Virus record (IMG/VR): IMGVR_UViG_3300042691_038938
Length of the DNA stretch: 64,000 nucleotides
Source of the DNA: a virus
Taxonomy: Duplodnaviria > Caudoviricetes
Reading direction: 5' to 3' (one strand)
The notes under the pieces are model-generated. The model did no database searches, was not told where the DNA came from, and saw nothing but the letters and a program-made list of their open reading frames with translations. Positions 15,072 to 63,803 of the stretch are shown here, piece by piece (position 1 is the stretch's first letter; the number at the start of each line of letters is the position of its first letter). The position numbers were made by a program, and so were the translations under genes.

Positions 15072-17030
15072 TCAGTCTCGGTTTTTCAAAAAATCGTTAA
15101 AGCTTGAAATCTTTTGTACCATCGATTTCTTCTTGGTTTTCTTACCCTTTGGCTTTCTTCCCGGACCAGCAAGAGCAAAGGTATCCATGTTAGAGTCTAC
15201 CATTGTGCCTGGAGTCTGGAATGCTGTTCCTGGAGAGACTCCTCCCTCGCTCTCCTTCATCTCAGCCGACTTGTAAAACTTAGGGCCCTCATTATCTCCA
15301 TAAGGAGTTAGTCCAACTACGTCTAACCTAGCCTTTGCTGTCGCCTTTTTAAGACCCTTATCAAAGTCTCGACCTGCTTGCTTTCCTCTAGTCACTAGGA
15401 CTCCTGCTTTGATTATGCTTGCGAGTCCATTGAATATTGCCTGGTTCTGCTTAGCGTTCTTTGCAGCGACTACTGCATCCCCTGCATCAGGGATTCCGGC
15501 AAAAAGTCCTACGACCAACTGCCCTAGTCCCTTAAGAATGTTCTTTAGCGGACTCTCTGCAATACGATCCTTTTCGCTTACGGCTAGCTTTATTTTAACG
15601 TATAGTGGAAGCTTTAGGTCTGGCTTTAACTGGATTCCCTTAAAGTTACCCATGTTAAAGTCCTTAGAGAGATAGCTATTCTTGATCTGTTTTTCTTTCT
15701 CAGCAGCAATGGCCTCTACTTTAGTCACGGCTGATGTTCTGTCCCTGTCTGAAAGTTCTCCGTCCTCTGAGCTCTTGATGTATTTTAGGATCCACTCCTT
15801 ACTTAAGGAAAGATACGTTAGCTGGTCTTCCTCTAGCGCGCTCTCTTTTGAAGAGCTCGCTTTAAATTGAGCTGCTCTACTTAAGCTATTAAACTCGTTA
15901 GTGATAGCATTTTCCATCCACGCAGAGTTCTTCTTGTCCAGTGCCTTGAATAGCTTATAATAGTCTCCTCCTGGAGGAGAAACTTCCCCATTCACAATAG
16001 GAGGAAGTAACGCAAGGTTAAGTGCCGAGATTAAATTGTTCTTGATCAAGTTCTTTCGACGAAGACTCGGCTTCTCAACTTTTCCAAGTTGTTCCTCTTT
16101 CTTTTTTATTGCTTTATCGTAGACCGCTTGATATCCTAGTGCGTCTATTAGAGGCTTCCAATCTATGTTCAATTGATATAGTCCTTCTGGCGTGTTTGGG
16201 ATATCGTAAATTCTCTTTTTATCTTCAGCCATCGCATCGGCAATCTCCTTAGCTATCAAATCGTTTGCCTTTTGCAAGATCTTTTCGATCTTTTTTCTAT
16301 TTGATGCGCCTACTGATTTTTTAGCCTCCTCAACGATCTCAGGATTAGACTTAAGAATTCCTTTAAACATCGATTTCTTTAGAGTCTGCTCGTTTCCGTT
16401 CTGATCAGTTATGATGAACTCGTCCGACTTTACTGCATTGTGAACTCCTCCTACTAGCTTTATCTTATAGACTGGAGTTCCCTCCCTCGTTGAGAACTTC
16501 AGCTCAGTTCCGTTCTCTTTGAAATAGAGCATAAGAGCAGTCTCAGTGTCGTAATCTGGTGCAGTGCTTGCGTAACTAAATATTTTATGGATCTTATAGA
16601 TACGACTTGAGAGTTCAGCTTCTCTAGTTTTTAAGGCATAAAACTTCTTAAATGAGTCCTCAGGTTTTATCTTTTTCTTTTCTGCTGAGATCTGACTGAT
16701 CGTCTTTCTAGTCCTCTTCACGAACTCGTCAACCATTCCGATCTTTTCAGGCTCGACCAACATCATGAGAATCCTTTGAAGTTCAGGCTGATTTTGAATC
16801 TTTTCTAGTAGATTGACGTCAATCTTTTCTAATGCCTTTTCTAAAGAGTCAAAGGATGTTGTCCTAGCGGTGTCGTCGACTGGATCACCTCCTATTCCGC
16901 TCGAAATTAGCTCCCGAATCTCATCGAACTCAGAACTTGATTCGTCCTTCTTTGACGAAGTCTCAGCTTCCGCTTCAAAAACGGGAGTGACTGTTCCCAG
17001 CCAATGTTTTAAGTATTCTCCAAAGCTCAT
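15072..17030 (-). CDS. Large hypothetical protein with capsid-targeting-like motifs at both termini
   Basis: 652-aa ORF; N-terminal MSFGEYL..FE, C-terminal KISSFNDFLKN. Confidence 0.7.
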   Translation of the reverse strand: MSFGEYLKHWLGTVTPVFEAEAETSSKKDESSSEFDEIRELISSGIGGDPVDDTARTTSFDSLEKALEKIDVNLLEKIQNQPELQRILMMLVEPEKIGMVDEFVKRTRKTISQISAEKKKIKPEDSFKKFYALKTREAELSSRIYKIHKIFSYASTAPDYDTETALMLYFKENGTELKFSTREGTPVYKIKLVGGVHNAVKSDEFIITDQNGNEQTLKKSMFKGILKSNPEIVEEAKKSVGASNRKKIEKILQKANDLIAKEIADAMAEDKKRIYDIPNTPEGLYQLNIDWKPLIDALGYQAVYDKAIKKKEEQLGKVEKPSLRRKNLIKNNLISALNLALLPPIVNGEVSPPGGDYYKLFKALDKKNSAWMENAITNEFNSLSRAAQFKASSSKESALEEDQLTYLSLSKEWILKYIKSSEDGELSDRDRTSAVTKVEAIAAEKEKQIKNSYLSKDFNMGNFKGIQLKPDLKLPLYVKIKLAVSEKDRIAESPLKNILKGLGQLVVGLFAGIPDAGDAVVAAKNAKQNQAIFNGLASIIKAGVLVTRGKQAGRDFDKGLKKATAKARLDVVGLTPYGDNEGPKFYKSAEMKESEGGVSPGTAFQTPGTMVDSNMDTFALAGPGRKPKGKKTKKKSMVQKISSFNDFLKNRD

Positions 17031-17048
17031 CCGATCGATCAGTTTTTA

Positions 17049-17243
17049 TTATTTATCTTTCTTTTTAAACCTGTCATATGGGATGACCCAAAGTTTTCTC
17101 TTGATCTCTCCTTTCATGAAATCATATACTGAATTTCCATCACTTCCCTCTTCAGGATGTTGAAGAAGAGCGTTTTCCAAGGGAGCCTTACCCTTTCGAT
17201 AGTCTTCGTAGTTTTTCCAGGATGAATGCTTCTTCTTTGCCAT
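17049..17243 (-). CDS. Small basic hypothetical protein
   Basis: 64-aa ORF filling the gap between co-oriented genes. Confidence 0.55.
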   Translation of the reverse strand: MAKKKHSSWKNYEDYRKGKAPLENALLQHPEEGSDGNSVYDFMKGEIKRKLWVIPYDRFKKKDK

Positions 17244-17253
17244 TTCTTCTTTG

Positions 17254-20725: not shown

Positions 20726-21283
20726 TTAGATCTCGGCTTTAGGTTCTTCAGTAGGAGCTTGACCTGGAGTCTTTTCCTTGGCTTCAACCTTTGGCTCTGA
20801 TTTTTTCTGTTTTGCTTTATTTATTGAGTCTCTAATACTCTTCGCGTCCATACCTATTGAAATGGTCGCAACGTTGTCTGAATCTTCTTTGTTCTCAGAG
20901 AAGTACTCAGCAATCTTTTTTAGGTTCATATTTAGATCACTACCGAATCCTCCAGCCTTTTCTATCTTGTCCTTAAGGCTTTCAGTGGCTTCAAATGAAC
21001 CTGTATATGCGATCGACCAGCAGTAAAATCTTACTTGCTCGCCGTTTCCTGAATAATATCTTTGCAGTTCTTTAATTCTTTGAATGGCACCGTTTGCGTC
21101 TCTAGAAGTAAGAGCCTTTCCCAAGTAATCAGATGGAACTCCGAATCTCACGCGGTCTGATAGCACATCCATTAGCTCCTCTATTCGTTGGATTAAGGTC
21201 TCTGCCTTGTAGCCTCTTAAAGATTTAGACGATTCTTCAGCTTCGTTCACGTACTGAAAATAGCTTCGCATATATTTTGCCAT
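20726..21283 (-). CDS. Hypothetical protein, putative internal head protein
   Basis: N-terminal MAKYMRSYFQYVNE; AATAAATA upstream. Confidence 0.7.
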   Translation of the reverse strand: MAKYMRSYFQYVNEAEESSKSLRGYKAETLIQRIEELMDVLSDRVRFGVPSDYLGKALTSRDANGAIQRIKELQRYYSGNGEQVRFYCWSIAYTGSFEATESLKDKIEKAGGFGSDLNMNLKKIAEYFSENKEDSDNVATISIGMDAKSIRDSINKAKQKKSEPKVEAKEKTPGQAPTEEPKAEI

Positions 21284-22545: not shown

Positions 22546-23037
22546 ATGGGAAAATACATCAAGCTATTTGAGGACTATGAAAACGAACTAAAGAATTCGG
22601 ACGAAGAGACCTCTCACAACTGGACCGACATTCGTGATGCCGTCCAGATGAGACTGCCCTTCGTGATAATAGTCTTCAAGAACTCTGATTCATACCTATC
22701 TGCGTTGGACTCTGAACTGATCGGTGGAGACTACATCAAGCAAAAAGCCCTAATGAGTAAGGACGGAACGCTTGTTAAGTACCCTTCGATCTTCATGGTT
22801 GTCCAGGACGACGAGACCTTTAAGAATAAGATACCAAAGATATTCGATGCATTTAAGACTAAGGTGATCTTTTTGGGTAAAAAGGGAGACGACCAGATTG
22901 ACTGTTATTACTCAGATGGATCTAACGTACAAGCAGGTAATGAGATAGTGTCCTCCTTAGGAAAGGATGAGATGGACAACAACGACCACTTTGAGATAGG
23001 ATCAACTAATTACATGTTTGTTGACTTCGTCGGATAA
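22546..23037 (+). CDS. Hypothetical protein, putative internal head protein
   Basis: Probable start MGKYIKLFEDYENE; GATAAATA at 22516-22523. Confidence 0.7.
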   Translation: MGKYIKLFEDYENELKNSDEETSHNWTDIRDAVQMRLPFVIIVFKNSDSYLSALDSELIGGDYIKQKALMSKDGTLVKYPSIFMVVQDDETFKNKIPKIFDAFKTKVIFLGKKGDDQIDCYYSDGSNVQAGNEIVSSLGKDEMDNNDHFEIGSTNYMFVDFVG

Positions 23038-25133: not shown

Positions 25134-25475
25134 TCAGTAGTTACTCATGTCCCAATTAGGTTCATCTTCGCCAGTCTCAGGATTTCTTAAAAGGTCTAGC
25201 GCGTGTTCTAAACCTGCCTTTATATCCTCAATTGAATTATAAGAAGACATTCCACTAACAAACATTTTAGCTAGCTTACGATCTCCGCTTAATTCTGTAA
25301 ACAACATCTCTAATTGAGTTTGCTCTTCTGGAGTAAGCTCATCATATTGAGCCTTTTGTCCCCTTCCTCCAACTAGTTCAGATCTAAGTCGAGTTGATTT
25401 ACTCTCTGGCTCTGAGCCATAATAGTATCCTTCATTTATGAATCGACCGAAAGGTTTTACATGATTTCTTTTCAT
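25134..25475 (-). CDS. Hypothetical protein, putative internal head protein
   Basis: N-terminal MKRNHVKPFGRFINE. Confidence 0.65.
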   Translation of the reverse strand: MKRNHVKPFGRFINEGYYYGSEPESKSTRLRSELVGGRGQKAQYDELTPEEQTQLEMLFTELSGDRKLAKMFVSGMSSYNSIEDIKAGLEHALDLLRNPETGEDEPNWDMSNY

Positions 25476-29564: not shown

Positions 29565-29590
29565 ATAAATAACAAAAAGATCAAAAATTC

Positions 29591-35140: not shown

Positions 35141-35155
35141 CGGTATGCTTTATTT

Positions 35156-48986: not shown

Positions 48987-49307
48987 CTAGTCTCTAAACT
49001 TTCCTGGAAAGATCTGTCTCCATTCATGACCCTTCGGTATGAATTTCTTCTTGACTCCAAAGATCTTGTCCTCTCCTGGATCACAAGCATTCTCACCATT
49101 CCACTTGAATCCGTTGCGACATGCCCAATTCTTCATGAATATGGTAAAGGGTTGACCTGTCACAAAGGGAAACCTTACTCCAGACTCGTTATCAATTTCC
49201 TCAATCTTTCCGTGAGTCATCTTAATTGTAATAGTTCTTCCCTGTCTCGATGTAAGGACTATGACTTCTTCTCTCATCCAGCTTTCGTATAGCACAACGT
49301 GTTTCAC
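48987..49307 (-). CDS. Hypothetical protein
   Basis: MKHVVLYESW; coupled to the cyclase gene. Confidence 0.65.
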   Translation of the reverse strand: MKHVVLYESWMREEVIVLTSRQGRTITIKMTHGKIEEIDNESGVRFPFVTGQPFTIFMKNWACRNGFKWNGENACDPGEDKIFGVKKKFIPKGHEWRQIFPGKFRD

Positions 49308-50360: not shown

Positions 50361-51284
50361 TTAGTAGCTAAATAGCGATAGTATCGATGTACCTTGACTC
50401 TCAAGGTTCAGGTTCTTTATGTATGAGACATAATACGGCGCAAGAGCTCCGCCCGTCTCAGTATCCACCTTAAAGAGTCCAAGGTTAGGATCTCCATCTA
50501 GTTCAGAGTCTGCAAACACTATCGCAGAGTAAACTGTGCCTCTGTGCTCGACTGTGCTGAATACTCCAAGTATCAACTCCACTCTAGTCTCACTAGGAGA
50601 AGGAACGAGTATGTTAGAATAGATAAAGTCGCCTGCATCTATATCAAAAGGCCCTATGATTATATCTGGCCCAGCATACGCTATCGCCCATGGAGTTCCA
50701 TCATACAGAAAGAGGTTTCTAAGTAGGTAACCTGTCACGCCGTCATCGACTTCAGATACTTCAGTCACATCGACCGTTTCGGCTAATTCGTTCAGTGTCA
50801 CTCTAATGATGCTAGACACTCCAGTCTTCTTGAAACCGTTATCTAGATAGATAAAACTCCCATTACCTTCATAATACAGAGAGCTTGCTCCCTTTGTCGC
50901 ATAATCGTTGATGTTATTATCAAAGAAGGTAAACTCTCTGGTCTCCTTGTCGATTCGTATGAAATATACTTCTCCACCAAAATCAACCGCTGCGTATAAA
51001 CGATCATCGTCTGTGTTTAGGGTGATTACGGTCAGATCAGGAAAATTCTCGAAGTTGAATGGCCAATTGGCTTCAGTTCGGTCTACTGTGTATATTAGAC
51101 CATCGAATGAGACTCCAAATAGTCCCTCCAATGGATCATATCCGCCGCCGCTACCTGCTGCGCCAACTCCGCCTTGTGACTGCATCTTGATTCTTATTGC
51201 TTGCTCAAATAGAGCATCCTGTTCTAGCTTTGCGCGAAGAGCTCTTTGTTCGGGCGTCTCGTTTCCCCAATTGATGAATGACAT
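50361..51284 (-). CDS. Putative virion surface protein: conserved N-terminal anchor plus beta-rich (propeller-like) domain
   Basis: MSFINWGNETPEQRALRAK shared with the 62687 ORF; Gly linker; beta-strand-rich C-terminus. Confidence 0.65.
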   Translation of the reverse strand: MSFINWGNETPEQRALRAKLEQDALFEQAIRIKMQSQGGVGAAGSGGGYDPLEGLFGVSFDGLIYTVDRTEANWPFNFENFPDLTVITLNTDDDRLYAAVDFGGEVYFIRIDKETREFTFFDNNINDYATKGASSLYYEGNGSFIYLDNGFKKTGVSSIIRVTLNELAETVDVTEVSEVDDGVTGYLLRNLFLYDGTPWAIAYAGPDIIIGPFDIDAGDFIYSNILVPSPSETRVELILGVFSTVEHRGTVYSAIVFADSELDGDPNLGLFKVDTETGGALAPYYVSYIKNLNLESQGTSILSLFSY

Positions 51285-52433: not shown

Positions 52434-53192
52434 TTATACTTTAGTTCCGCAGTTAGGGCAGAACTTCCAGCTGGATTTTTTAAGACGCGAGCCGCAATCA
52501 GTGCAGTAGTTTCTAATCTCTTTAAGATCGACTGGTTTTTTGGACTCTGGCAAGATCCTGATAAAGACTGAATTGCTTGCCCAGAAATTATATTCTGAGT
52601 TGTCCTGACCGAATTCTTGGTCAGAAGACTCTCCCTTCTCAGTTCGGCCAGTCTCAAGGGATCCTGCGATCGGCATTGAAGAGGTGACCATTGACGAGTT
52701 TGCCCCAATGACATCGTTCAGTGAAAAACCTAAAGTAGGATTAGAATTAGAATAGTAGACTGTGTTGACTGTTGATCCGCCGAATGGAGGATATGAGTCA
52801 TGCGTCCAAGTAGTATTGAACCCACCTGTCAGCTTGATGAATTCATCATAAAACTCTATTTTTACTCTACCGTTTTCTCTAGTTGCCTCCTTCGATTCAG
52901 CTGAGTTCTCGACTTCATAAGTCTCAAAGATAAACTTTTTTGGCTCATCGATCCATCTTTCTAAAAAGACTCTCTGGCCAGGTTTCACCACGATTCCAGT
53001 CGATGAAATAAGTTTTTCATCGATGTAGATCTTGGCAAGCACCTTTGATTTTTTGGGATTGTAAAGCTCTATCTCAAAGTGAGTCCCGTCTTTAAGATAG
53101 ACTTTGTTATCGTATTGTTTCATACGATTTCTGTTCACTGCAATGTGTGCAGTAGGAGACAGTGAGTCCCCTTTAATTGATGTGTAATTCAT
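52434..53192 (-). CDS. Conserved phage protein with C-terminal zinc ribbon
   Basis: GIVVKPGQRVFLERWID..KF.FETYEV; C-terminal YCTDCG...WKFCPNCGT. Confidence 0.8.
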   Translation of the reverse strand: MNYTSIKGDSLSPTAHIAVNRNRMKQYDNKVYLKDGTHFEIELYNPKKSKVLAKIYIDEKLISSTGIVVKPGQRVFLERWIDEPKKFIFETYEVENSAESKEATRENGRVKIEFYDEFIKLTGGFNTTWTHDSYPPFGGSTVNTVYYSNSNPTLGFSLNDVIGANSSMVTSSMPIAGSLETGRTEKGESSDQEFGQDNSEYNFWASNSVFIRILPESKKPVDLKEIRNYCTDCGSRLKKSSWKFCPNCGTKV

Positions 53193-53212
53193 AATTTACC
53201 TGTTTTTTTAAA

Positions 53213-53283
53213 GCCGACATCATCGTGGGTCAACCCACTCAAAAGCCACTAGGACTTGATGCCGACTGGAGTGTCAGGCTCTA
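53213..53283 (-). promoter_or_regulatory. Candidate structured 5' leader RNA (pseudoknot-like)
   Basis: GUCGGCAUCA/UGAUGUCGGC 10-bp helix with two G-U pairs (minus strand only), GUGGG-UUGA-CCCAC hairpin, AGAGCC/GGCUUU crossing helix. Confidence 0.55.
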
Positions 53284-53411
53284 TTGATATTTACTCTAAT
53301 TTAGGTAAAAGTTTTTGGGTTAGGAGGTTACTGCTCTCTAGTTTATCTGCTATTTCTGATCCCTAGGTCCAAGCTTATGAGTCCTTCCTAGCTTCTTTAA
53401 AGTTGGCATTG

Positions 53412-54878
53412 TTAGCTATTGAGTCTAAGCCAAGCGCTAAAGGACACGTTTAGTCCCTCTCCCAAGTACTTCTTACGTAATCGATCAGCTTTATCAATGT
53501 CTCCTTTCAAATAGGCATCAATGATCGCATCTTGTATCTCGTCCTGGCTCATCTCGCTTTCAACATCCGGCTCAACATCCGGCTCAACCTCTTGAGTCGG
53601 CATCTCGTATCGAGGTTCCTCCTCTTTAGATTGGTCACCATATTTAGACTGTGCTTCAAGGTTGGCTAGTGCTTCTTCAATTATGGGATAAAATAATCTT
53701 TCGATACCTGATTTATCATTCATCAAGATTGCATATACAATCTTAAGCATTTCCTTAGGGTCATCTTTACCAGTCGTTGCAAGCATTCCAAATACCATCC
53801 AATAGAGACGTTGTTCCTCTGCCGCGAGGTCATTCCATATCGAATCGACATTCTCTCCTGTTTCTCGGTCCATTTCGCGTCGATAGCTAGAAAACCTCTC
53901 TTCAACTTCCGGATGAGAGTTGATTGCTTTACGAAAATCGTTCTGCATGTCAGTGCCGTACTTAAACTCTTCAGCTTCATCAAGTAGAGTATCAGTGTTC
54001 ATTATCACCTGTTCTGCCTCATCTTCTGAAAGGTGCTCAGTGCTTAGCTGTACTGGAAGAACGTAGACTGCTTTGATCGCTTCATGGATAAGAACTGAGA
54101 GATCAACTCCCCTAGCAAATATCTTCATCTCAAGGTCTGCCATTAACTCTTCAGCTGAGTCGCTTTCAGTAAAGTCCTTTCCTTTTTCAAGATCGTCTAA
54201 CATCTTCTTAGCTGCGTCTTCGTCTGGCTTTTTATCTCCAAAATCAATCATATTGACCCCAGCTCCAGACATCTTCAAGTAGGTCTTTATCTGGTTATCT
54301 GGTAATCTCCAATCATTGAATTGAGCCACTGCTGAGATCTTATTCAAGAGCTTAAGATATTCTTCACCGTCGGTTTTTCCTAGTATTGTCTTGATTCCAG
54401 ACTTGAACATAGGTAGATTTAGAATCGCTTTAGAATTCAATCCCATTCCCTGCTGAAGCGTCTTTAAGATCTTTCTCTTGTGGATCTCATTAATTATCTT
54501 ACGATTAACGATTTCCTCGACGTTAGGCTGTTCAGGTTCCTCTGGAGTCATTGATCCCATTGATCGTGCCTCATCACCTATCTTAAAATCGAATTCAACA
54601 TCATCAAGCAGACCCTTGAATATGAATCTAAATGAAGAAACAGTCAGGTCAGATAACGCGTCCTCGTGCCCTGATTGAAGTGCTTTTGATTTGCCAATAA
54701 GCCCCATGAAATTACTAAGGTCTTCACGATTTTCCATGGCAAATCTTGCCATTTTAGGATCCTTTTCCGCTTTGACCTTCGCTAACCATGAAGGATCATT
54801 GGACTCTCCTTCTCCTGGAATTCCGATGTTTCCTCTAAGGGAAGCCTCATTGATATAGTCTTCGAAATTATTTAACAT
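53412..54878 (-). CDS. Hypothetical protein, putative internal head protein
   Basis: MLNNFEDYINE; LIHE motif; C-terminal VSFSAWL. Confidence 0.75.
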   Translation of the reverse strand: MLNNFEDYINEASLRGNIGIPGEGESNDPSWLAKVKAEKDPKMARFAMENREDLSNFMGLIGKSKALQSGHEDALSDLTVSSFRFIFKGLLDDVEFDFKIGDEARSMGSMTPEEPEQPNVEEIVNRKIINEIHKRKILKTLQQGMGLNSKAILNLPMFKSGIKTILGKTDGEEYLKLLNKISAVAQFNDWRLPDNQIKTYLKMSGAGVNMIDFGDKKPDEDAAKKMLDDLEKGKDFTESDSAEELMADLEMKIFARGVDLSVLIHEAIKAVYVLPVQLSTEHLSEDEAEQVIMNTDTLLDEAEEFKYGTDMQNDFRKAINSHPEVEERFSSYRREMDRETGENVDSIWNDLAAEEQRLYWMVFGMLATTGKDDPKEMLKIVYAILMNDKSGIERLFYPIIEEALANLEAQSKYGDQSKEEEPRYEMPTQEVEPDVEPDVESEMSQDEIQDAIIDAYLKGDIDKADRLRKKYLGEGLNVSFSAWLRLNS

Positions 54879-55140
54879 ATTTGTCGTGTAGTTTTTGAAT
54901 CATTTTCATTCCTTCTGGAGTGTCCTTTATTGCGTTAAGCTCGTTAAAGAACATGTCAATCATCTCTTCGTATGCGAACTGAGGCTTGGTTTTCTCTCTT
55001 TCGCTAGGTCTCTTAGTAGGAATAGGCCTCCATGGTCTCTTTCCCTTCTCTTCATCCGGTGGTGCAGTAGGAGTCTTAGGCTTGATCGCAGGTTCTGCCA
55101 TCGCTAACCTTTCGTTGATTGATTTGATGTACTTCCTCAT
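54868..55140 (-). CDS. Hypothetical Pro-rich protein
   Basis: MRKYIKSINE; AATAAATA at 55164-55171. Confidence 0.65.
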   Translation of the reverse strand: MRKYIKSINERLAMAEPAIKPKTPTAPPDEEKGKRPWRPIPTKRPSEREKTKPQFAYEEMIDMFFNELNAIKDTPEGMKMIQKLHDKYVK

Positions 55141-55221: not shown

Positions 55222-56742
55222 ATGAGTCACTTACTTTCATTTAATTCTTTTACAGACCAACCTAGAATGGACGAAAACATCCAGGCAGCGAAGGGATATC
55301 TTCTTAAAAGTTATTCTGACAAGATGAACGTTCCCATCTCTGAGATTCCCAAAGAGGAGCAGGGAGAGATCTTACGTAATAATAAAGACTATCAAGCGAT
55401 CCTAACGATGCTAAAGGGCAAGGACGGATACGTATATCCCTTTGTTCTTTTTAGGTTTGAGCATAACGTTCGAATGAATCAGTTGGCTAACCTTCTAGAG
55501 AAGATCAAGCAGTATTCTGCTGTGTTAAATACTCTGCCGATGCCGATCGAAGAGTATGCGAAACAGGCTCAAGTAAACGGAGTAGATAGTTTCGAGGCAC
55601 TGATGGACGCATTTGACTCAATAGAAGTAAAGAAAAGGAGCCGATGGATCATTGACGACACTCCAGGAGACCTGCGTCGCCGATTAAGAATGTTGAGTGA
55701 CCGTGACCAGGACAGACTGATAAAGTCTGCAAAGATCATTGACGATATCGATGCTAAAGTCGGAAACTTCATTGATGAGGAGACTGGCAGAGAGACGAAT
55801 AATAAGATCAGTCTTCTTAAGAAAGTAAAGTCATTCGCAGATAAATCAGCTGAAGAATATTTAGAATGGGTGGAGAGCTTTGCGGATGGAGTCGCCTCAT
55901 CAGATGTTGTATCAAAGATGGAACAGCTAAAGGATCTCATACCTGAAGCTGGACTACTCTACCTAAAGAATGGGTACATGGTTCTAGGAATTCGTACTGA
56001 AAAGGCTCAAAAGGATCTTTGTTCCATCGCTAACTGGTGTATCAACCGTGGATCTTGGGGATCGTACGGTGGTCAAAAGGATCGTTTACAAATAAACATC
56101 TTTAACTTCAACAAGAAACCGACAGATCCTCTACACATCACTGGTACTACAGTGACTAAGGACAAGAGAGTCACCCATTCACACGATAAGAACGACTTAA
56201 GCATCATAAAATCAAATGATTTCAGACAGCACCTCTTGGGTCTAGGTTATCCTGAGGAACTTGCGACAGCAGTTGACTCTTCCATCATGCGGGAGGGACT
56301 CATCAAAGATATCGTTACTGGGTTCAACATGGACGCAAGCTCTCCTAGAGATCTATTAAAGACGATAGTGTTTGCGAGCTACGATCCTCGAATGAATCTT
56401 GAAGAGGATAAGTCAGTGATCGGTCCGATACTTGAGATAATCGATGAACGTGTTTCAGGAAACATCTCGCCACAGGAAACACAGTCTCTCTTCATGGAAA
56501 AGGGATGGTTATCTCCTTTTTCAGCGAAGCTATTCAACCTGCTCTTTCCCGACCTTTCTACTGATTTTAGAAATAGGATAGTGAGTAGAGCGAAGGAGAT
56601 CTTTGGAGATCTTGAAGAGATCCTCGTTTATTTCGGAGCTTCAAAATATCCTGCAGTAGCCGGAGCAGTGAAGAGAAAACAAGAGATCCTAGACATACTT
56701 GAGAGAGGCGAATCGATTGAGAGAGATTCTCAAGAAAGATAA
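55222..56742 (+). CDS. Large hypothetical protein
   Basis: MSHLLSFNSF; ANWCINRG motif; GATAAATA at 55187-55194. Confidence 0.75.
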   Translation: MSHLLSFNSFTDQPRMDENIQAAKGYLLKSYSDKMNVPISEIPKEEQGEILRNNKDYQAILTMLKGKDGYVYPFVLFRFEHNVRMNQLANLLEKIKQYSAVLNTLPMPIEEYAKQAQVNGVDSFEALMDAFDSIEVKKRSRWIIDDTPGDLRRRLRMLSDRDQDRLIKSAKIIDDIDAKVGNFIDEETGRETNNKISLLKKVKSFADKSAEEYLEWVESFADGVASSDVVSKMEQLKDLIPEAGLLYLKNGYMVLGIRTEKAQKDLCSIANWCINRGSWGSYGGQKDRLQINIFNFNKKPTDPLHITGTTVTKDKRVTHSHDKNDLSIIKSNDFRQHLLGLGYPEELATAVDSSIMREGLIKDIVTGFNMDASSPRDLLKTIVFASYDPRMNLEEDKSVIGPILEIIDERVSGNISPQETQSLFMEKGWLSPFSAKLFNLLFPDLSTDFRNRIVSRAKEIFGDLEEILVYFGASKYPAVAGAVKRKQEILDILERGESIERDSQER

Positions 56743-57284
56743 CCCTCTATTTCTCCTTGAGTCTTTTTGATCGGTGGAAACTTCTTTGGATGGGTGTAAG
56801 CTATAAAGATCTGTCTAATGAATGCACCCTTTCCTTGAAAAGTAAAGTCAAGCACTCGTTTGGATTCTAAACCAAGGTCGCCGACCTCTGCCGCAAGGTT
56901 AGAGATCTTTTTAACTGCTTGTCTTTCAGCACGTTGAACTGATCCGTTTATTCCATCCTTACGACCAGCTCCTCCTCTACTAGTCAGACCCACCCAGGCC
57001 TTACCATCCTTGCTCTCCTCAATGGTGACTTCCCAAGAAACCTTCCAATTAGTATCGTCCATGTTGATCTTAATTGAGGTGATCTCTGGATTTGCTCCAA
57101 GCTCCTTGTAAAACTTTGCCAGTGCTTCATTCACGAGAGTGTTCATCTTGCCGCCGAAGCCATCCTTCTTTCTGGACTGAAAGGAATGCATGGCATCATA
57201 GTCTCCCCTAGGTGGTGAGAACTCTCCCTTCACAACTCTCTTTTTCTGTAGAGAAAACTGTTCGTAAAGTTTTAAGTACTTCAT
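56730..57284 (-). CDS. Hypothetical protein, putative internal head protein
   Basis: MKYLKLYEQF; GATAAATA (57291-57298) 6 nt upstream. Confidence 0.7.
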   Translation of the reverse strand: MKYLKLYEQFSLQKKRVVKGEFSPPRGDYDAMHSFQSRKKDGFGGKMNTLVNEALAKFYKELGANPEITSIKINMDDTNWKVSWEVTIEESKDGKAWVGLTSRGGAGRKDGINGSVQRAERQAVKKISNLAAEVGDLGLESKRVLDFTFQGKGAFIRQIFIAYTHPKKFPPIKKTQGEIEGYLS

Positions 57285-57311
57285 ATACTTTATTTATCTT
57301 TTATTTTTAAG

Positions 57312-57317
57312 TACAAT
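57312..57317 (+). promoter_or_regulatory. -10-like element TACAAT of an apparently leaderless gene
   Basis: AGTACAAT then 6 nt then ATG; same spacing at 26993 and 62733. Confidence 0.6.
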
Positions 57318-57323
57318 AGTACT

Positions 57324-57929
57324 ATGATAGACAATTTAGAAACCATTAAGCCTCTCTTAAAATTCTCTGAACCTGGAGACTTTTACATGCTCTATGTGTT
57401 TAAAAGAAAGAAGGATCAGCCTGAAGGGGAACGAGACAATCACCAGTCGGTGCGAACCATTAAAACTTATTGCATTGAGAGCATGGATCACCTGGAGAGA
57501 AGGTGGGACGAGATCAAGCAACTCTGTGAAGTATTCAGGGCCAGAGCCTACATCCATGTGCAGAAACAGAATCATCGGGACGTTTCCTTGAACATGATGG
57601 TCTCACTTGCTGAAAGGATAAGAGACGGTGTTCAAAACCAGAAGGGTCTCTTTGACTCAGTAGTCGGTCAGATCAAGACTCAAGAAAAGAGATGGATCGT
57701 CGATATCGACACTCACGACTACCATGCAGTTAACGAGCTCGCAAAGGTCATCAATCGCTTGGATCCAGCTGGACCTAAGTGCGAAGTAGTTGTTCCCACG
57801 AAGAACGGATATCACCTGATCACTGCAAAGTTTGATGCAAAATCCTTCAAGGAGAAGTTCCCTGACATAGACATACAGAAAAAGAATCCAACTCTTCTCT
57901 ACTATCCGGATTCTCTAGATCAAAACTAA
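57324..57929 (+). CDS. Phage protein with archaeo-eukaryotic primase (AEP)-like motifs
   Basis: WIVDIDT (hhhDhD) and PTKNGYHLI (GxH). Confidence 0.55.
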   Translation: MIDNLETIKPLLKFSEPGDFYMLYVFKRKKDQPEGERDNHQSVRTIKTYCIESMDHLERRWDEIKQLCEVFRARAYIHVQKQNHRDVSLNMMVSLAERIRDGVQNQKGLFDSVVGQIKTQEKRWIVDIDTHDYHAVNELAKVINRLDPAGPKCEVVVPTKNGYHLITAKFDAKSFKEKFPDIDIQKKNPTLLYYPDSLDQN

Positions 57930-57953
57930 TCACTGACTAATAGTAAAAATAAC

Positions 57954-58556
57954 ATGGAAGAATACATTCGTAAGGGCAATCATCACATTGCAGTATTCAT
58001 GAAAGATTTCTATGATACTGGACTAGAGCCTTCGTATTACATTCGTAAGAACAAGGAGTATAAGATTGAGGAAGCTCAGTATCACTCCTCTTGGGACTGG
58101 CTCATGCCAGTTGTCGATAAGATCGAAGAACTTGGATTTAGAGTGTATCTCGATAAGTACTCATGTCAGATCTACAGAAGAGATGCATCATTTCCGGAAA
58201 ACTTTATAGTTGATGCTGATTTCAAGCAGGATAGGCTTGAGAACGCATTTGAAGGAATCTCAGCTTTCGCTGAGTGGTGGTGTCGTAAGAGGAGAAAGAG
58301 ACCTGCACTCAAAAAGAATCCTGAACTCGAAAGGGAAATCTCTGAATTCATCAGTGATTGGATAATTGAAAGAATCTTATTTAAAGAGGAGAATATATTT
58401 GAGACAAGCTTCATGCCGGGCAAGACAACAAAGTGGTATCCTGTGCATCCAAAGGGAAGCTCAAATAGGCCTTATCTTGAAAAAAAGATGAGAGCCGATA
58501 TATGCAGGTTGATCAGACTAAAAAAATCAGATAAGGATGCCGTTTCATCTACGTAG
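57954..58556 (+). CDS. Hypothetical protein (YHSSWDWLMPVV family N-domain)
   Basis: YHSSWDWLMPVVDKIE motif; apparently two-domain. Confidence 0.7.
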   Translation: MEEYIRKGNHHIAVFMKDFYDTGLEPSYYIRKNKEYKIEEAQYHSSWDWLMPVVDKIEELGFRVYLDKYSCQIYRRDASFPENFIVDADFKQDRLENAFEGISAFAEWWCRKRRKRPALKKNPELEREISEFISDWIIERILFKEENIFETSFMPGKTTKWYPVHPKGSSNRPYLEKKMRADICRLIRLKKSDKDAVSST

Positions 58557-58833
58557 AATATCAGACAGGCGCAGTTGGTCAGGTTTAAGAAGCGAGGCTA
58601 TTGCGTGGGACGAGGAGTCAGAGATCGGAAAGATTCACGGTCATGAGCCTGAGGTCGGCAAGTCAATCCTAGTCGGACCCATTAGATCCAACGATATCTG
58701 GATCACGACTCAGGTCGAGGAGATCTTGGAAGAGATCAGAACAGAACAAGTGGACTACCTTAGGTTCAGGACAAAGAACTCAGAGTACGAATGGTGGAAC
58801 GGAGTGCACCCAAAAGAAAGAGATGAAGACTAA
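58537..58833 (+). CDS. Conserved phage hypothetical protein
   Basis: W.TT.VEEI...F.TKNSEYE pattern. Confidence 0.65.
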   Translation: MPFHLRRISDRRSWSGLRSEAIAWDEESEIGKIHGHEPEVGKSILVGPIRSNDIWITTQVEEILEEIRTEQVDYLRFRTKNSEYEWWNGVHPKERDED

Positions 58834-59122
58834 ATACGAGGTATATGCGGTGGGTTCACAGGTGTGGGCGATATCTAGATATAGAGCGTCCAATGGAGAC
58901 ACAGATCATTGCGCAGTCTATCCTGCAATAGTGCGGTCAGTCACCATATACCAGGACGATAAGACGAATGACATCAGCATCGACTACTGGGTAAAGACTC
59001 CAAAGGGCGATGACTGGGGAGACTCAGTGGAAGCAGAGTGGGTGAGCGATAGCTTTGAAGAACTAATAGAAAAACTAAAGGAGGAATGGACAAGGAACGC
59101 CAATCGGATGGATCTAGAGTAA
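58823..59122 (+). CDS. Hypothetical protein
   Basis: 99-aa ORF overlapping the upstream stop. Confidence 0.65.
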   Translation: MKTKYEVYAVGSQVWAISRYRASNGDTDHCAVYPAIVRSVTIYQDDKTNDISIDYWVKTPKGDDWGDSVEAEWVSDSFEELIEKLKEEWTRNANRMDLE

Positions 59123-59496
59123 AGAAGAGTCAAGACTATCAGGTCATGGGAAAGTATTTAGAGCACACTAGACGAGTCTTTACCGTTCGAGAGATACTGC
59201 ACATTAGAGCAAAGATCATGAGGGGCACCAGGATCTCCAGGATAGCTGAGGGATATGGTGTCGATTATCGAGTAATAGCTAATATCTTCAAGGAATTTTG
59301 CTGGGGATTCTCTAAGAACTGCCCGTCAATCGTGATAGAGAGGCTCGGTCACAAGAACGAGCCCTACTATGAAACTGAGGATGAGATGCTAGAAGAGCCT
59401 GAATACTCTTGGGAAAGCCTAAGTGCTCTGGAAAAGGAGTGGTACTTGCAAAGAACGGGAAATCCCACGTTAATCACAAACAAAATAGACAAATGA
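59086..59496 (+). CDS. Hypothetical protein with HTH-like segment
   Basis: RISRIAEGYGVDYRVIANI; start uncertain. Confidence 0.55.
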   Translation: MDKERQSDGSRVKKSQDYQVMGKYLEHTRRVFTVREILHIRAKIMRGTRISRIAEGYGVDYRVIANIFKEFCWGFSKNCPSIVIERLGHKNEPYYETEDEMLEEPEYSWESLSALEKEWYLQRTGNPTLITNKIDK

Positions 59497-60250: not shown

Positions 60251-60305
60251 GGATTGTGAGATTTTATTTTATTTATCTACAGGATTTTAGTACAATAGTG
60301 ATAAG

Positions 60306-61031
60306 ATGAAAGATAGCATTTACGAGAGCATTTACGACTTCTGCAAGGTCAGAAACCTGGGCACGGTATTTATGAATGGTGACGAGCCCACACCAAGGGT
60401 AAAGTTCATCCTTGACCTCTTGGACAAGGAGGGGATTCCTTATGAGTTAGACAAGTTTAAAGTCAATAGCGCTCAATGCTATAACATCATACTTAGGGGT
60501 TCCAGTTCAAGAATGGTGACCGCTCACCATGACATCGTGAATCCCAACATCGATAACGCCAACGACAACTCGGCCTCAGTGATCAATGCAATCGCGATAA
60601 AGAAGAAACTACCTGAGGTTCACGTAGTCCTCCTAGACGGTGAGGAGGTGGGCGGCTTGGGATCCCAACGATGTTCTGAACAGATCAAGGCTGGCGAGTT
60701 CGGAGAGATCGAGTGGGTGCTGAACTTAGAACTTACTGGCCGAGGTGGCAAGAACTTTTTTATCGGCAACTATCCAGGTCCGCTGAGCGATCGTATCGGT
60801 GGAATGTTTGAGTGTCAGATAGAGTCAACCCCTTTCAACGACTCGGTCATCTTTAGGAGAAACGGCATCGACTCAGTTGTGATCAATCCCTTGCCTATAG
60901 TTGATGGAGAGCTAGACTTTAGCATGCTCTGGAACTGTCACTCAAGTCGAGACACACTAGATACGATCTGCACCAAGGACATGCAGGAATTCGTGGAAGA
61001 GGTGGTGATTCCTATACTTAGGAACGACTAG
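60306..61031 (+). CDS. M28-family zinc metallopeptidase
   Basis: TAHHD, ANDNSAS, DGEEVGGLGS, LNLE, CHS..DT. Confidence 0.88.
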   Translation: MKDSIYESIYDFCKVRNLGTVFMNGDEPTPRVKFILDLLDKEGIPYELDKFKVNSAQCYNIILRGSSSRMVTAHHDIVNPNIDNANDNSASVINAIAIKKKLPEVHVVLLDGEEVGGLGSQRCSEQIKAGEFGEIEWVLNLELTGRGGKNFFIGNYPGPLSDRIGGMFECQIESTPFNDSVIFRRNGIDSVVINPLPIVDGELDFSMLWNCHSSRDTLDTICTKDMQEFVEEVVIPILRND

Positions 61032-61034: not shown

Positions 61035-62687
61035 TTAAACTGTTCCTACTTGTAAAGATCCTTGAGCTGAGCTAAATGGATCGTTTGTGCTATAAGCGAA
61101 TCCCTGCGTTCCTGATGCGGAGTTACCATTTCCGCTGTTGTCATTCAATAGAGCGCTTTCTGTTGTTCCTTGAAACAATAGAAGTTTAACAGTCGGTAAA
61201 GTTGGGACGGTGAATGGTGCAGCAGGTGACGTGAATCCAGCTGTTGAATACTGCGCGGTGTCTGACCATCTAAAGTTACTTATGAATCCGTCGAGCGAAG
61301 AATTAGGCTCGTTACCGTATCCTATTGCTAAAGGCAAGCCTTGACTCGGTATTGGGTCGGGGTACGGATTTGATGCAACATTTATACCATCGATAAAGAG
61401 ATCAATATTACCACTTGTTCTCATTGCGCATATATGATACCATTGTCCTAGTGTAGGTGTAAATGACCCAACCGACCTCTGATCACCGTTTGCCCAGAAA
61501 ATGATTTGATTAGTTTGAAAAGATATAGCATTGGCAGCAGTCGGAAAGGCACCAAAACTATACGGACGAGGGGAGGTGCCGAAGACGTCTAGTTGATTAA
61601 AATTAACAAACATCTCGATCGTAAAATCACCCGTGATATCGAAGTCTATGCTTGCTGGAATACTAAGGTCCGACACCAGAATATTAACGTCTACCGTCCA
61701 CCCATTTCCTTCTAGAACTTCTTTGGCCGCAAGACCAATTTCACTCGGCGCAGCATTAGTAACTCCAGATAAATCAACATATCCATTCGATACCCCGTTA
61801 GTACTTAAAGCAACTAAGATGTTATCTACAGCTTCTTCCGTTAGAGCCCCATCATCCACATCCACAGATTCACCATCACCAAGAGGCTGGGTATTTGATA
61901 TAATTACATTTGTGATATCATCGTTATTACTTAGATCAAACCCTCGTAAAGAAGGCAACATTGATAAGTCAATACTAGTAATATTGCAATCATCAAAATC
62001 TATATACTGAAGGTCATTTAAACCAGTCAAATCTGGAGTTCCAGCAGAAAAATCACTGTCATCAAGATAAAGAAATTCTAATGAAGTACAACCTGAAACA
62101 TTAACACTTGTTAATGATGGCGCCTCTGTATCAAGATCATCACAATCACTAATATCAATATATGTAAGATTAGTCATTCCTGAAAAATCTACGCTTACTA
62201 ATGAATTGTAGTCTGCTCTAAATTCTTGTAAATTGGCAAGGGTTTGTAAACCAGTTATTGATACTAAAGATGAATAATTATCATCCCAACCTGGAAAATC
62301 CAACTGTAATACTTTAAGAGGATCATCAAATGTAACTTTAACTGTGTACTCTCCACCTTCATCATATGTATGTTCTTCTGAATAGAATCCTCCAGAGCCT
62401 GAACCTTCATATGTATTACCGTCGCCCCAATCAATAGTAAATTCGATTGGTTCATTTGTAGAAGTAAATTCAATTCTAAAGTCAAGTTCTTGTGTTGTAT
62501 TTACTACAAATTGTAAGCCGGTTGGCGGCACACTCCCTCCGCCGGCGGCCCCGCCAAACATGGTATTTGTTCCACGGTTTCTTGCCTGACTTAGCCTAGC
62601 TGCCTGCTCTAACAGGGCATCTTGCTCAAATTTTGCACGAAGAGCTCTCTGCTCCGGCGATTCACCTCCCCAATTGATGAATGACAT
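61035..62687 (-). CDS. Putative virion adhesin: shared N-anchor, PKD-like domain, leucine-rich repeats, LamG/ConA-like domain
   Basis: Probable start MSFINWG at 62687; IDWGDG..HTYD (PKD); LxxLxxLxxxxNxL repeats; GDFTIEMFV..WYHICAMR..LFIDG..GFISNFR (LamG). Confidence 0.85.
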   Translation of the reverse strand: MSFINWGGESPEQRALRAKFEQDALLEQAARLSQARNRGTNTMFGGAAGGGSVPPTGLQFVVNTTQELDFRIEFTSTNEPIEFTIDWGDGNTYEGSGSGGFYSEEHTYDEGGEYTVKVTFDDPLKVLQLDFPGWDDNYSSLVSITGLQTLANLQEFRADYNSLVSVDFSGMTNLTYIDISDCDDLDTEAPSLTSVNVSGCTSLEFLYLDDSDFSAGTPDLTGLNDLQYIDFDDCNITSIDLSMLPSLRGFDLSNNDDITNVIISNTQPLGDGESVDVDDGALTEEAVDNILVALSTNGVSNGYVDLSGVTNAAPSEIGLAAKEVLEGNGWTVDVNILVSDLSIPASIDFDITGDFTIEMFVNFNQLDVFGTSPRPYSFGAFPTAANAISFQTNQIIFWANGDQRSVGSFTPTLGQWYHICAMRTSGNIDLFIDGINVASNPYPDPIPSQGLPLAIGYGNEPNSSLDGFISNFRWSDTAQYSTAGFTSPAAPFTVPTLPTVKLLLFQGTTESALLNDNSGNGNSASGTQGFAYSTNDPFSSAQGSLQVGTV

Positions 62688-62744: not shown

Positions 62745-62870
62745 ATGAAAAATCAAAATATTTACCGATTATTGGTTCAATTTTCGCTTATTGTCGGAAT
62801 AGTCCACCTTGCCTCCCAAGGAATGGAGGGTTGGGGCTGGCTTATTATTGCATTATTTTTAACCCTATAA
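62745..62870 (+). CDS. 41-aa membrane peptide absent from the ORF track
   Basis: MKNQNIYRLLVQFSLIVGIVHLASQGMEGWGWLIIALFLTL; TATAAT 6 nt upstream. Confidence 0.6.
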   Translation: MKNQNIYRLLVQFSLIVGIVHLASQGMEGWGWLIIALFLTL

Positions 62871-62880
62871 ATACGAAGAG

Positions 62881-63315
62881 ATGAATAAGTTTAGAGTGGG
62901 AGACAGGCTGCGAGCCAATGAGTTCGATCGAGAGAACTACGACCTCACGTGGGTGACGATCACTGAGATAGACGAGGAGAACGAGGTCTACCACTGGCAG
63001 GCAGAGGAACCTCTCACCGGCGACGCGATCCACTCAGGTTACTTCTTTCCCGACGCTGTCGAGTACGATGAGAGGGAAGAGGCAATGATCAGGATGATGC
63101 GGGAGGACGAGGCGTCCGGAATCTATCAGGAACTCAGCCCAGTGGAGTGGTTCATTGAGGAACTCAAGAAGCTCAATGAGATACTGGATCCCCAGACCTG
63201 GCACTTCACCCGGATCGAGATCTACGAAAAGGCCAAACGGATGGAACGGGAAAGGGACGAGCTGCTCAAGGACTTCGATAACTGGAAGAAGTGGAAACAC
63301 GGAGAACCTTTCTAA
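62881..63315 (+). CDS. Mosaic hypothetical protein
   Basis: Contains IRMMREDEASGIY and SPVEWFIEEL..EKAKRMERE modules; GC-richer than its neighbours. Confidence 0.7.
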   Translation: MNKFRVGDRLRANEFDRENYDLTWVTITEIDEENEVYHWQAEEPLTGDAIHSGYFFPDAVEYDEREEAMIRMMREDEASGIYQELSPVEWFIEELKKLNEILDPQTWHFTRIEIYEKAKRMERERDELLKDFDNWKKWKHGEPF

Positions 63316-63428
63316 ATTAGAACATCACCGCCATGCAAAAGTACACAGCAGACTTTGGGCTCCAGGCAAGGACCACTCCTTGGCCGCATCGAACCCATTC
63401 AGACGTCGAGGTTGAGATCAAACTCTTA

Positions 63429-63803
63429 TTAATATCTTTCCCCTCTATATCTGCGCTCGTTCTCAGCCTGGACGTCAGCCATGCGCTTCCACATCTCCTC
63501 TGTTCTTCTTTCAGAGTCCTCTCTGAATCTACCCTTTCTCTGCCACAGGCTTTCATCATCCATAAAACTCCTCTTTAGTCTGTCCAATTCCAATAAGAGC
63601 TGGTTTGCAGGCTCAGCATAGTTCTCATTGATATATCTAGAGTCGACTCCCTCAATCCTTAGAGCTCTTAGGTGATCTACTAGAGCAGAAAGATCGTTTA
63701 GTGGTTCCTGAAAGACTTCCATTGAATGTAATAGGTCCTTATATGTCTCGTTGATTCGACTCTCGTTCAGGTGATTTTCAAATCCTTTTACGTAATTCTT
63801 CAT
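63429..63803 (-). CDS. Hypothetical protein, putative internal head protein
   Basis: MKNYVKGFENHLNE; GATAAATA at 63823-63830. Confidence 0.7.
   Translation of the reverse strand: MKNYVKGFENHLNESRINETYKDLLHSMEVFQEPLNDLSALVDHLRALRIEGVDSRYINENYAEPANQLLLELDRLKRSFMDDESLWQRKGRFREDSERRTEEMWKRMADVQAENERRYRGERY

Follow-up and report, generated by a model that had tools for sequence, protein, structure and literature searches.

A stretch of 64,000 nt from the IMG/VR virus record IMGVR_UViG_3300042691_038938 (Duplodnaviria; Caudoviricetes), called the window below, belongs to an uncultured jumbo phage that is distantly T4-like and in which a short N-terminal leader with the consensus K-x-[FY]-x-x-[FYW]-[IVL]-N-E precedes many proteins. 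Judging from its sequence features, we consider it likely (probability about 0.7) that this leader is a propeptide of the T4 type, which would target proteins to the prohead and be removed by the head protease. Because about 20 unrelated proteins carry a peptide so similar to the T4 tag, it is probable that the DNA of this phage is packaged together with a large set of proteins. The principle of such a capsid-targeting sequence (CTS) is known; the much expanded version of it in the clade of the window phage is new.

A strict model placed the consensus at the N-terminus (residues 3–15) of 12 called genes. With variants, about 22–23 genes in the window are tagged; the original prediction had named roughly 25, and its "dozens" goes beyond the evidence. 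Three internal copies (37544-37591, 39984-40028, and 39387-39422) had been overlooked. All 16 N-termini that had been quoted as examples were confirmed in position and strand, including three non-ATG starts (TTG at 41416, GTG at 47305, and GTG at 49307). Among 128,000 six-frame residues there are nine matches to the strict pattern [FYW]xx[FYW][IVLM]NE, of which six lie no more than 10 residues from the start of a called gene and two fall inside called genes. A scan with a nine-column position weight matrix (PWM) gave 14 top matches of at least 14.6 bits, all 14 in called gene frames (12 at residues 3–10, two internal), and the next-best match scored 11.9 bits. Variants below this threshold were counted where orthologs with the canonical form support them (29591, 41471, 45108, 55222, 35429, 39738, 49310, and others).

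The enrichment that the original prediction had anticipated was found against shuffled, internal, and shadow-frame controls. The strict motif was present in six of 88 N-termini compared to a mean of 0.019 (maximum 1) in 2000 composition-preserving shuffles, which is about 300 times the frequency in shuffled N-termini, and it was present in none of 900 internal 20-mers (Fisher p = 4e-7) and in one of 213 shadow open reading frames (ORFs). Every one of the 12 strict members has the aromatic pair [FY]-x-x-[FYW], as do the internal copies. The closing Glu of strict members lies at residue 10–15, and [IVLM]-x-E is found in nine of the 12, with E-N-E in the protein at 22546 and no such ending in those at 36205 and 56730. 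The statement that the leader ends in Glu thus stood for most of the quoted examples but not for the two starting at 36678 and 57284, which keep only the aromatic pair. Tagged proteins had been described as non-homologous, and BLASTP found no match of any of them to another; the PWM scan likewise agreed with the described absence of the motif from the glycan block, baseplate operon, replication genes, and small-gene block (57324-59496). Isoelectric points of tagged and untagged proteins did not differ.

The 12 strict members are listed first. In all lists, a slash follows a Glu after which the protein would be cut, bits are PWM scores, and "promoter" stands for the likely late promoter discussed below.

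20726-21283, minus strand: 185-residue protein, MAKYMRSYFQYVNE/A, 21.1 bits; ATAAATAA 24 nt upstream
22546-23037, plus strand: 163-residue protein, MGKYIKLFEDYENE/L, 20.7 bits; late-type promoter 29 nt upstream
25134-25475, minus strand: 113-residue protein, MKRNHVKPFGRFINE/G, 20.9 bits
34383-34826, minus strand: 147-residue clade-core protein with a basic, helical mature part, MERKIKSYNQFINE/A, 23.4 bits
34826-35140, minus strand: 104-residue protein, MSSYIKSFKSFQNA, 19.5 bits; promoter 23 nt upstream
36205-36678, minus strand: 157-residue protein with a retropepsin-like protease domain, MKRLVESFKEFITSSE, 14.6 bits
40676-41416, minus strand: 246-residue nucleotidyltransferase-like protein, TTG start, MKNRARKFSEWINE/K, 19.2 bits
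47305-48984, plus strand: 559-residue protein, GTG start, MIKDFKTFVNE/A, 20.1 bits
48987-49307, minus strand: 106-residue protein, GTG start, MKHVVLYESWMRE/E, 17.4 bits
53412-54878, minus strand: 488-residue clade-core protein, MLNNFEDYINE/ASLRGNIGIPGE, 20.0 bits
56730-57284, minus strand: 184-residue protein, MKYLKLYEQFSLQ with no closing Glu, 16.9 bits
63429-63803, minus strand: 124-residue protein, MKNYVKGFENHLNE/S, 18.5 bits; promoter 26 nt upstream

Genes with variant or decayed tags, apart from those with internal leaders, are the following.

29591-29896, plus strand: 101-residue protein, variant tag MKRRILSLRDYRLYE/S; promoter 26 nt upstream
35156-35425, minus strand: 89-residue protein, decayed tag MKRLTEGFGANTME
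35429-35884, minus strand: 151-residue protein, variant tag MRYNSIKRLYE/A; promoter 34 nt upstream
41471-42397, plus strand: 308-residue protein, variant tag MKHVKSYSSINE/S; promoter 13 nt upstream
44429-45106, minus strand: 225-residue protein, variant tag MKHILEYYNWVSLNE/G; second gene in the unit of the 45108-46484 promoter
45108-46484, minus strand: 458-residue protein, variant tag MDFNYFISIFE/D; promoter 27 nt upstream
49310-50011, minus strand: 233-residue class III adenylate/guanylate cyclase, variant tag MKYLVSYPIWE/S; Pfam Guanylate_cyc, E = 9e-23
54868-55140, minus strand: 90-residue protein, short variant tag MRKYIKSINE/R; promoter 30 nt upstream
55222-56742, plus strand: 506-residue protein, split variant tag MSHLLSFNSFTDQPRMDE/N; promoter 34 nt upstream

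We evaluated the conservation of the leader in relatives of the window phage. A matrix trained on the window alone retrieved 148 tagged ORFs in 48 mutually unrelated families from 1.5 Mb of clade sequence, and two 125-kb relatives have 14–15 N-terminal matches each. Glu14 is invariant among 42 orthologs of the 34383-34826 protein, with F11 and N13 at least 90% conserved. In the 53412-54878 family (168 homologues, 73 of them aligned), Glu11 never varies, and conservation of F5, F8, and N10 is 90% or higher. The closing Glu is also invariant in 10 orthologs of 40676-41416, and K-L-[FY]-E-D-[YF] is kept in 17 orthologs of 22546-23037. Orthologs of 25134-25475 still have MKKNIVKTFGQYVNE although their mature part is only 30% identical, and a distant homologue of 20726-21283 (contig L080) has MSTKKWQISTFSQFINE. 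Orthologs retain the leader also for 47305-48984 (MLKDFQSFINE in G004), 48987-49307 (MKKYIQLFESWQRE), and 56730-57284 (MKYIKIYEDYTPT in G003).

Orthologs also clarify most of the variants. Many of the 59 orthologs of 29591-29896, an acidic clade-core protein encoded by the first gene of the operon ending in portal, have a canonical ending (MKRVMSFREYKLNE, MRRIMNLREYRVNE). The acidic, Pro/Gln-rich, core-like protein 35429-35884 has 35 orthologs that keep [IL]-[RK]-[RK]-[LI]-[YLV]-E (e.g., IRKLYE). Orthologs of 41471-42397 begin MNRYVMSFDSINE or MKEYIRPFGSINE, the G003 ortholog of 45108-46484 reads ...TFESFAIFE/DSN, and those of the decayed 35156-35425 read MTKSFDRFINE/V or MRAKNFDQYLNE/V. In 55222-56742 a gap separates the aromatic pair from the closing x-x-E, and its orthologs have MNGILNFSQWCNTGELNE/N or MGTMLNFSQW...SLNE/N. 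The 34826-35140 protein has no closing Glu in the window genome, and its orthologs have one (FQNAE). No ortholog was found for 44429-45106 in the relatives' loci or for 54868-55140 among the relatives examined.

These data place the signal at the level of the protein. Codons at conserved positions match genome usage (AAT 6 and AAC 5; GAA 8 and GAG 3; TTT and TTC mixed), residue variation stays within physicochemical classes (F/Y/W and I/V/L/M), and two internal copies have no start codon; together, free synonymous codons, class-wise variation, and start-less copies exclude a nucleotide or start-codon artefact. That the pattern arose by chance, from a nucleotide signal near starts, or from recent recombinational copying of one 5' segment is so improbable that we give it next to no weight. 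The A-rich start regions without Shine-Dalgarno motifs would lead one to expect some bias at 5' coding ends, but the shuffle, shadow-ORF, and internal controls all speak against chance, and leaders are conserved in relatives at 63–94% portal identity.

The leader also behaves as a separable module. In AlphaFold2 (AF2) models of the 488- and 147-residue proteins, it is of low confidence and detached from the fold. The predicted local distance difference test (pLDDT) is about 50 for the leader of the 147-residue protein, which lies apart from a helical bundle, and below 50 for residues 1–11 of the 488-residue protein (mean 82). The cyclase at 49310-50011 is the clearest case of the tag as an add-on module. 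Its class was assigned from a profile match (PF00211, 81.2 bits against a cut-off of 21.9, residues 22–161), and a linker of about 14 residues separates tag and catalytic domain. Among 112 cyclase homologues with a locatable domain start (ILFTD), the protein start lies within 8 residues of the domain in 24, whereas the other 88 carry an extension of 18–31 residues, which is leader-like in at least 65 (e.g., MKRFKDFINE/N and MKRFTTFITE/S).

Leader-like motifs ending exactly at a stop codon (LSFDQFINS*, VSYTLFINE*, KSFVSYIKE*) were seen in relatives, some in very short ORFs (G001 156402-156863; G003 near 35443 and 114904; G004 near 56422 and 92975). These may be remnants of gene splits or of lost cargo. 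An untagged cREC_REC "cyclic-phosphate processing receiver" protein (43039-43545, plus strand, E = 2e-20) is encoded about 6 kb from the tagged cyclase, and the two may form a phage cyclic-nucleotide module.

In T4, the CTS is carried by internal proteins (IPs) IPI–III and by Alt and is removed by the prohead protease gp21 (Mullaney & Black, 1996; reviews PMC9026906, PMC3012670). IPII and IPIII, as translated from NC_000866, both start with MKTYQEFIAE/A. The window leader is likewise an N-terminal peptide, of 10–15 residues, on otherwise unrelated proteins, and MKTYQEFIAE compares well to MIGRAKTYQQFINE, found in one relative, or to MERKIKSYNQFINE (aromatic residues at 4 and 7, aliphatic at 8, Glu at 10). 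Amber-suppressor mutagenesis of T4 IPIII mapped targeting to residues 4 and 7 (Tyr4, Phe7) and processing to residues 8 and 10 (PMC9026906), and these four determinant positions are exactly those conserved in the window leaders. The agreement with the T4 peptide does not extend beyond them. The same core is found at the T4 gp23 maturation site, FGSFLTE/A. The window phage resembles T4 also in having a gp21-family protease, a T4-type portal and major capsid protein, and basic modules like those of internal proteins. The CTS comparison of the original prediction is therefore supported by the determinant positions, the protease, protein-level conservation in orthologs, modularity, and promoters common with structural genes.

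The two systems differ in scale and design. About 20 tagged genes lie within 43 kb of the window, compared to three IPs and Alt in T4, and "at least 10" IP types are described for T-even phages overall (PMC12373910). The window leader strongly prefers Asn before Glu. Internal leader copies, two-module precursors, and a protease fused to a repeat scaffold are features of the window phage, whose cargo would include a cyclase and other enzyme-like domains and whose mature parts have no homology to T4 IPs. The T4 determinants were mapped by mutagenesis, whereas the window leader is known from sequence alone.

The protease gene lies just outside of the window and was located on contigs found by look-up with the 301-residue protein encoded at 444-1349. 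Two of these contigs overlap the window with zero mismatches over 11,349 nt (L116) and 7.4 kb, and so come from the same genome or strain. At 3.6–7.3 kb upstream of the window start they encode DnaJ, a 655-residue Peptidase_S77 (PF03420) protein, and a Gp23 major capsid protein.

L116 3981-5948, minus strand: S77 protease fused to a scaffold, 655 residues, 3.6–5.6 kb upstream of the window start

This gene is immediately preceded by that of the DnaJ homologue and immediately followed by the major capsid protein gene; a counterpart is found in G001 (52877-54856), and the S77 protein is present in four of five relatives. Its C-terminal half contains [YF]xx[YH][IVL]xE at residues 294, 322, 336, 350, 364, 378, 392, 406, 420, and 434, in a register of 14, and the scaffold consists of ten exact 14-residue repeats with the consensus S-I-x-Y-x-E-Y-[ILV]-A-E-x-L-N-x. 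Repeats in register are also found in four relatives. Over whole contigs, the aromatic-x-x-aromatic-aliphatic-x-Glu core is about 20 times more common at N-termini than elsewhere, and no protein other than the scaffold has as many as three core matches. Because its ten repeats carry the leader core, we conclude that scaffold and cargo are probably recognized and cut by one rule. Candidate maturation sites of the form [VL]-x-E were seen in the major capsid protein (PILE, WLAE, PVFE), and none could be singled out.

The adjoining DnaJ gene brings in another possibility, in which the peptide would be a helix that docks onto something else (the DnaJ chaperone, a membrane or assembly site, or a like subunit in oligomerization) and would have nothing to do with the head interior. 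A short, amphipathic peptide with two aromatic residues would suit this role, and the head location of the tagged proteins is itself deduced. We nevertheless regard it as improbable, since it leaves several features unexplained: the Glu that never varies, with an aliphatic residue two places earlier; the additional [VLI]-x-E site ahead of the internal copies; the same core in ten scaffold repeats; and the agreement with the experimentally mapped T4 determinants. An even smaller chance is given to a recognition leader like those of ribosomally synthesized and post-translationally modified peptides (RiPPs). Leaders common to unrelated proteins can serve one maturase, but Pfam scans of 70 window proteins found no radical-SAM protein, cyclase-type maturase, or similar enzyme, and the S77 protease is the only enzyme with a known specificity that fits the motif.

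If the leader is a prohead-targeting propeptide, as we favor, the tagged genes would be expressed late, along with the structural genes. The aromatic residues at P7 and P4 (relative to Glu) would dock each protein on the scaffolding core during prohead assembly, and the scaffold-fused S77 protease of the gp21 family would then cut after the Glu of [IVL]-x-E to leave the mature protein free inside the head. At least part of the tagged set would be expected to exit the head with the DNA.

The internal leaders are found beside the portal gene, in three proteins for which this model predicts an additional cleavage.

31114-32832, plus strand: T4-type portal protein gp20, untagged; Pfam Portal_T4, E = 7.7e-60
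37301-37966, minus strand: very acidic two-module protein, 221 residues, with N-terminal MSGRVLNFFEFSDKYS and an internal full-length leader
37544-37591, minus strand: internal leader VEE/SFRLVKSFSRFLNE/S, 19.2 bits; V-E-E site just before
39219-39728, minus strand: 169-residue protein whose N-terminal module is Cys-rich and whose C-terminal module is Lys-rich and basic, with an internal leader between the two
39387-39422, minus strand: internal leader LAKSFESFTVNE/AKKKEK, within 39219-39728
39738-40649, minus strand: 303-residue protein with N-terminal MHKYFNFAKIFE/AE and an internal leader; its C-terminal module is strongly basic and resembles a T4 internal protein
39984-40028, minus strand: internal leader VQE/SRGIMSFSQFVNE/AKKDK, 16.9 bits, within 39738-40649

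The leader at 37544-37591 is conserved in G001, G003, and G004 as VEEG-x-x-LV-K-G-F-x-Q-F-V-N-E, and the module C-terminal to it varies among relatives (194–367 residues in total). Relatives have VEE/G, LEE/G, or IKE/G 5–6 residues upstream of the internal copies, a second [VLI]-x-E site. The two-module precursors would be cut into separate products at the internal leader and this preceding site, and the modules predicted to be released are very acidic on the N-terminal side and Lys-rich and basic on the C-terminal side. In two relatives the downstream module is a gene of its own: the basic module of 39219-39728 begins with MKLHNFNSFVNE at L052 12151-12405, and the C-terminal module of 39738-40649 is a 125-residue protein beginning with MSVIKNFSQFLNE at L033 8710-9087 (67% identity).

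By analogy to T4 gp67, gp68, and the basic internal proteins, the cluster 34383-40649 is most likely a prohead-core gene set. This bears on the claim of a large injected cargo: the T4 CTS comparison behind it is supported, but the cluster resembles prohead-core and basic internal proteins and not injected enzymes. The peptide could accordingly mark substrates of the head protease that serve as building material of the prohead core and are degraded or retained, with no role as an address for effectors. The acidic Pro/Gln/Glu-rich and Lys-rich modules of the cluster, so similar to gp67, gp68, and the IPs, the clade-core status of several tagged proteins (50–170 orthologs), and the leader core in the scaffold all fit this account. 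However, variable accessory genes are tagged too, some of them with enzyme domains, and in T4 the signal serves core components and injected proteins (IPs, Alt) alike. We therefore think it unlikely for the set as a whole, but it overlaps with the targeting-propeptide reading without excluding it and is probably true for part of the set. The set as found is a mixture of conserved core or internal proteins (acidic scaffold-like, Lys-rich) and variable accessory proteins (cyclase, nucleotidyltransferase-like, and retropepsin-like protease).

The original prediction counted enzymes among the cargo, and this holds in a limited form, with only three tagged proteins having a recognizable enzyme domain. 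These are the cyclase, the protease at 36205-36678 (Pfam PF05618, E = 3.7e-19, residues 35–153; PDB 9g59, E = 6e-6), and the nucleotidyltransferase-like protein at 40676-41416, for which the Pfam match (NTP_transf_2) was weak, at 21.8 bits against a cut-off of 21. Searches of the PDB by phmmer with the proteins at 47305, 53412, 55222, 45108, 40676, and 41471 gave no match, nor was there a usable one to the large tagged proteins in the protein Atlas, and 47305-48984 had no match in Pfam, the PDB, or the protein Atlas. The AF2 model of 53412-54878 may at best have a gluzincin-like helical fold (weak VIA-align matches to M32 carboxypeptidases, Z = 6.3), with HEAIK in place of HExxH; Foldseek against the PDB and AFDB gave no named match for it, and no known fold matched the model of 34383-34826. 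PHROGs had no match for the core-cluster proteins. Small tagged proteins had no similarity to IPI, IPII, or IPIII in their mature part in Pfam and PHROG comparisons, and the likeness is one of composition (Lys-rich modules).

Tagged genes also share an upstream motif with structural genes. The octamer ATAAATAA has 30 copies in the window and lies within 100 nt upstream of 26 genes. The GATAAATAA motif, in the form (G)ATAAATAA, is found 13–34 nt upstream of 16 of 23 tagged genes compared to 11 of 65 others (p = 7e-6), and the other tagged genes are downstream members of units headed by (G)ATAAATAA. The GATAAATAA element also heads the baseplate operon and the operon ending in portal, and (G)ATAAATAA is absent from the glycan, replication, and small-gene blocks of the window. 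From its resemblance to the T4 late promoter TATAAATA, (G)ATAAATAA is likely a late promoter. Example sites are 15053-15061, 29565-29573, and 41423-41431, with about 25 more. A different element, GTACAATAGT, was seen at 57300-57323 and 60282-60305, before the plus-strand genes 57324 and 60306, and may represent another promoter class. Two untagged enzymes, a Peptidase_M28 domain protein (60306-61031, plus strand, E = 3e-11) and a GH19 chitinase-like protein (46643-47254, minus strand) that is probably the endolysin, have promoters of the late type or of another class.

Several results weigh against a targeting propeptide. The "late" label for the promoter rests on likeness to T4 TATAAATA. The T4 CTS itself scores 5.8 bits with the window PWM, which is positive and below threshold. 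Two strict members (36205-36678 and 56730-57284) have no closing Glu, the tag has been lost in one family in the window genome (35156-35425), and the 207 kb of the more distant G001 contain only some five N-terminal tags. The summed mature mass of the tagged set is about 560 kDa at one copy each, a figure that is silent on copy number and fit to the head. A complex prediction for a leader (G004 62771-63145, residues 1–40) with two scaffold repeat regions gave 0.01, and is listed here for completeness as evidence neither way. Lastly, a PWM of the complete 14-residue scaffold unit (39 units) fails to retrieve the leaders from the window proteome. For this reason we dropped the idea that the leader had been copied from a scaffold repeat, and the likeness between the two is limited to the four positions of the core.

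A broader form of the propeptide reading is a general address system for 20 or more proteins in each genome and some 50 families in the clade, which would be loaded onto the ten-repeat protease-scaffold and delivered into the host cell before gene expression. Its cargo would comprise the cyclase, nucleotidyltransferase-like and peptidase-like proteins, and the two-module precursors after they are cut apart. We put this forward tentatively, as a possibility with the odds somewhat against it.

Short peptides also bring unrelated enzymes into HK97-fold shells in encapsulins, whose cargo-loading peptides, like HK97-fold scaffold capture, offer an analogy only. In encapsulins the peptide is usually at the C-terminus, attaches to the shell protein itself, and stays on the cargo. 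In the jumbo phages phiKZ, 201phi2-1, and SPN3US, a protease related to gp21 cuts many head-internal proteins after Glu, and the propeptides are thought to target these proteins to the prohead (PMC5694885, PMC7411985). The window phage resembles them as a jumbo phage with propeptide-bearing candidates for inner-body or ejection proteins, but the propeptides of these phages, which belong to another lineage, are mostly about 80–130 residues with no single short motif, and cleavage follows small residue-x-Glu. T-even phages put one CTS on diverse internal proteins (PMC3012670, PMC12373910), and reviewers have suggested the CTS as a general protein-packing route of T4-like phages. Hypervariable internal-protein loci of T-even phages were found by this signal sequence and their products act against restriction after injection (Repoila et al., 1994, cited in PMC3012670; PMC12373910). 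Those loci, too, contain diverse, fast-changing accessory genes with only the leader in common; the tagged genes of the window differ in spanning more than 40 kb in many small late units and in including clade-core genes. We found no paper in the literature on the clade of the window phage or on its protease-scaffold repeats.

If the tag acts as it does in T4, the proteins carried by the phage could be predicted from sequence for a whole uncultured clade. Carried proteins would act before any phage gene is expressed, which makes them prime candidates for counter-defense and host takeover, and a packaged nucleotide cyclase, if true, would be a new kind of pre-made effector. Recruitment of T4-type core cargo is poorly understood even in T4 and could be informed by the protease-scaffold fusion, the internal leaders, and the one core common to the T4 gp23 site, T4 CTS, scaffold repeats, and leaders. 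With the help of the leader, it could also become possible to use the protein-packaging technology of T4 in other hosts.

Besides the genes above, the window encodes a gp25-like wedge protein, PhoH, helicase and primase-like genes, and a glycan-synthesis block. Megablast found no near match to the window among GenBank phages, and an exact-DNA look-up in IMG/VR was likewise negative. Judged by the portal, the deposited phages nearest to it are metagenomic huge phages, at 38% identity, and Lak phages, and a portal search of IMG/VR identified 80 related contigs at 63–94% identity. One of these is 207 kb with an estimated completeness of 81%, which implies a genome of about 250 kb. ENA, JGI, and Logan assemblies contain hundreds of metagenomic contigs of the clade. 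The host may plausibly belong to the Bacteroidota: the deposited relatives include Lak phages of Prevotella, and most start codons in the window are preceded by A-rich sequence almost without a Shine-Dalgarno motif. The family-B DNA polymerase ORF (27005-28438, plus strand) starts shortly ahead of the KxxxNSxYG motif and thus covers no more than the C-terminal half of the protein; the gene appears to be split, with the N-terminal half not adjacent.

A second shared N-terminal module, unlike the leader, was also observed. It reads MSFINWG-x-E-x-x-EQ...FEQ over about 30–45 residues and is present at 50361-51284 (minus strand) and 61035-62687 (minus strand, true start at Met24 of the listed ORF) in the window, at L116 899-1828 (minus strand), and in many proteins of G003 and G004. 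Its carriers are otherwise unrelated proteins of 66–930 residues; the 550-residue member of the window has PKD, LRR, and ConA-like lectin domains, and one member adjoins the major capsid protein gene. The module is probably an anchor that attaches exposed decoration or fiber proteins to the virion.

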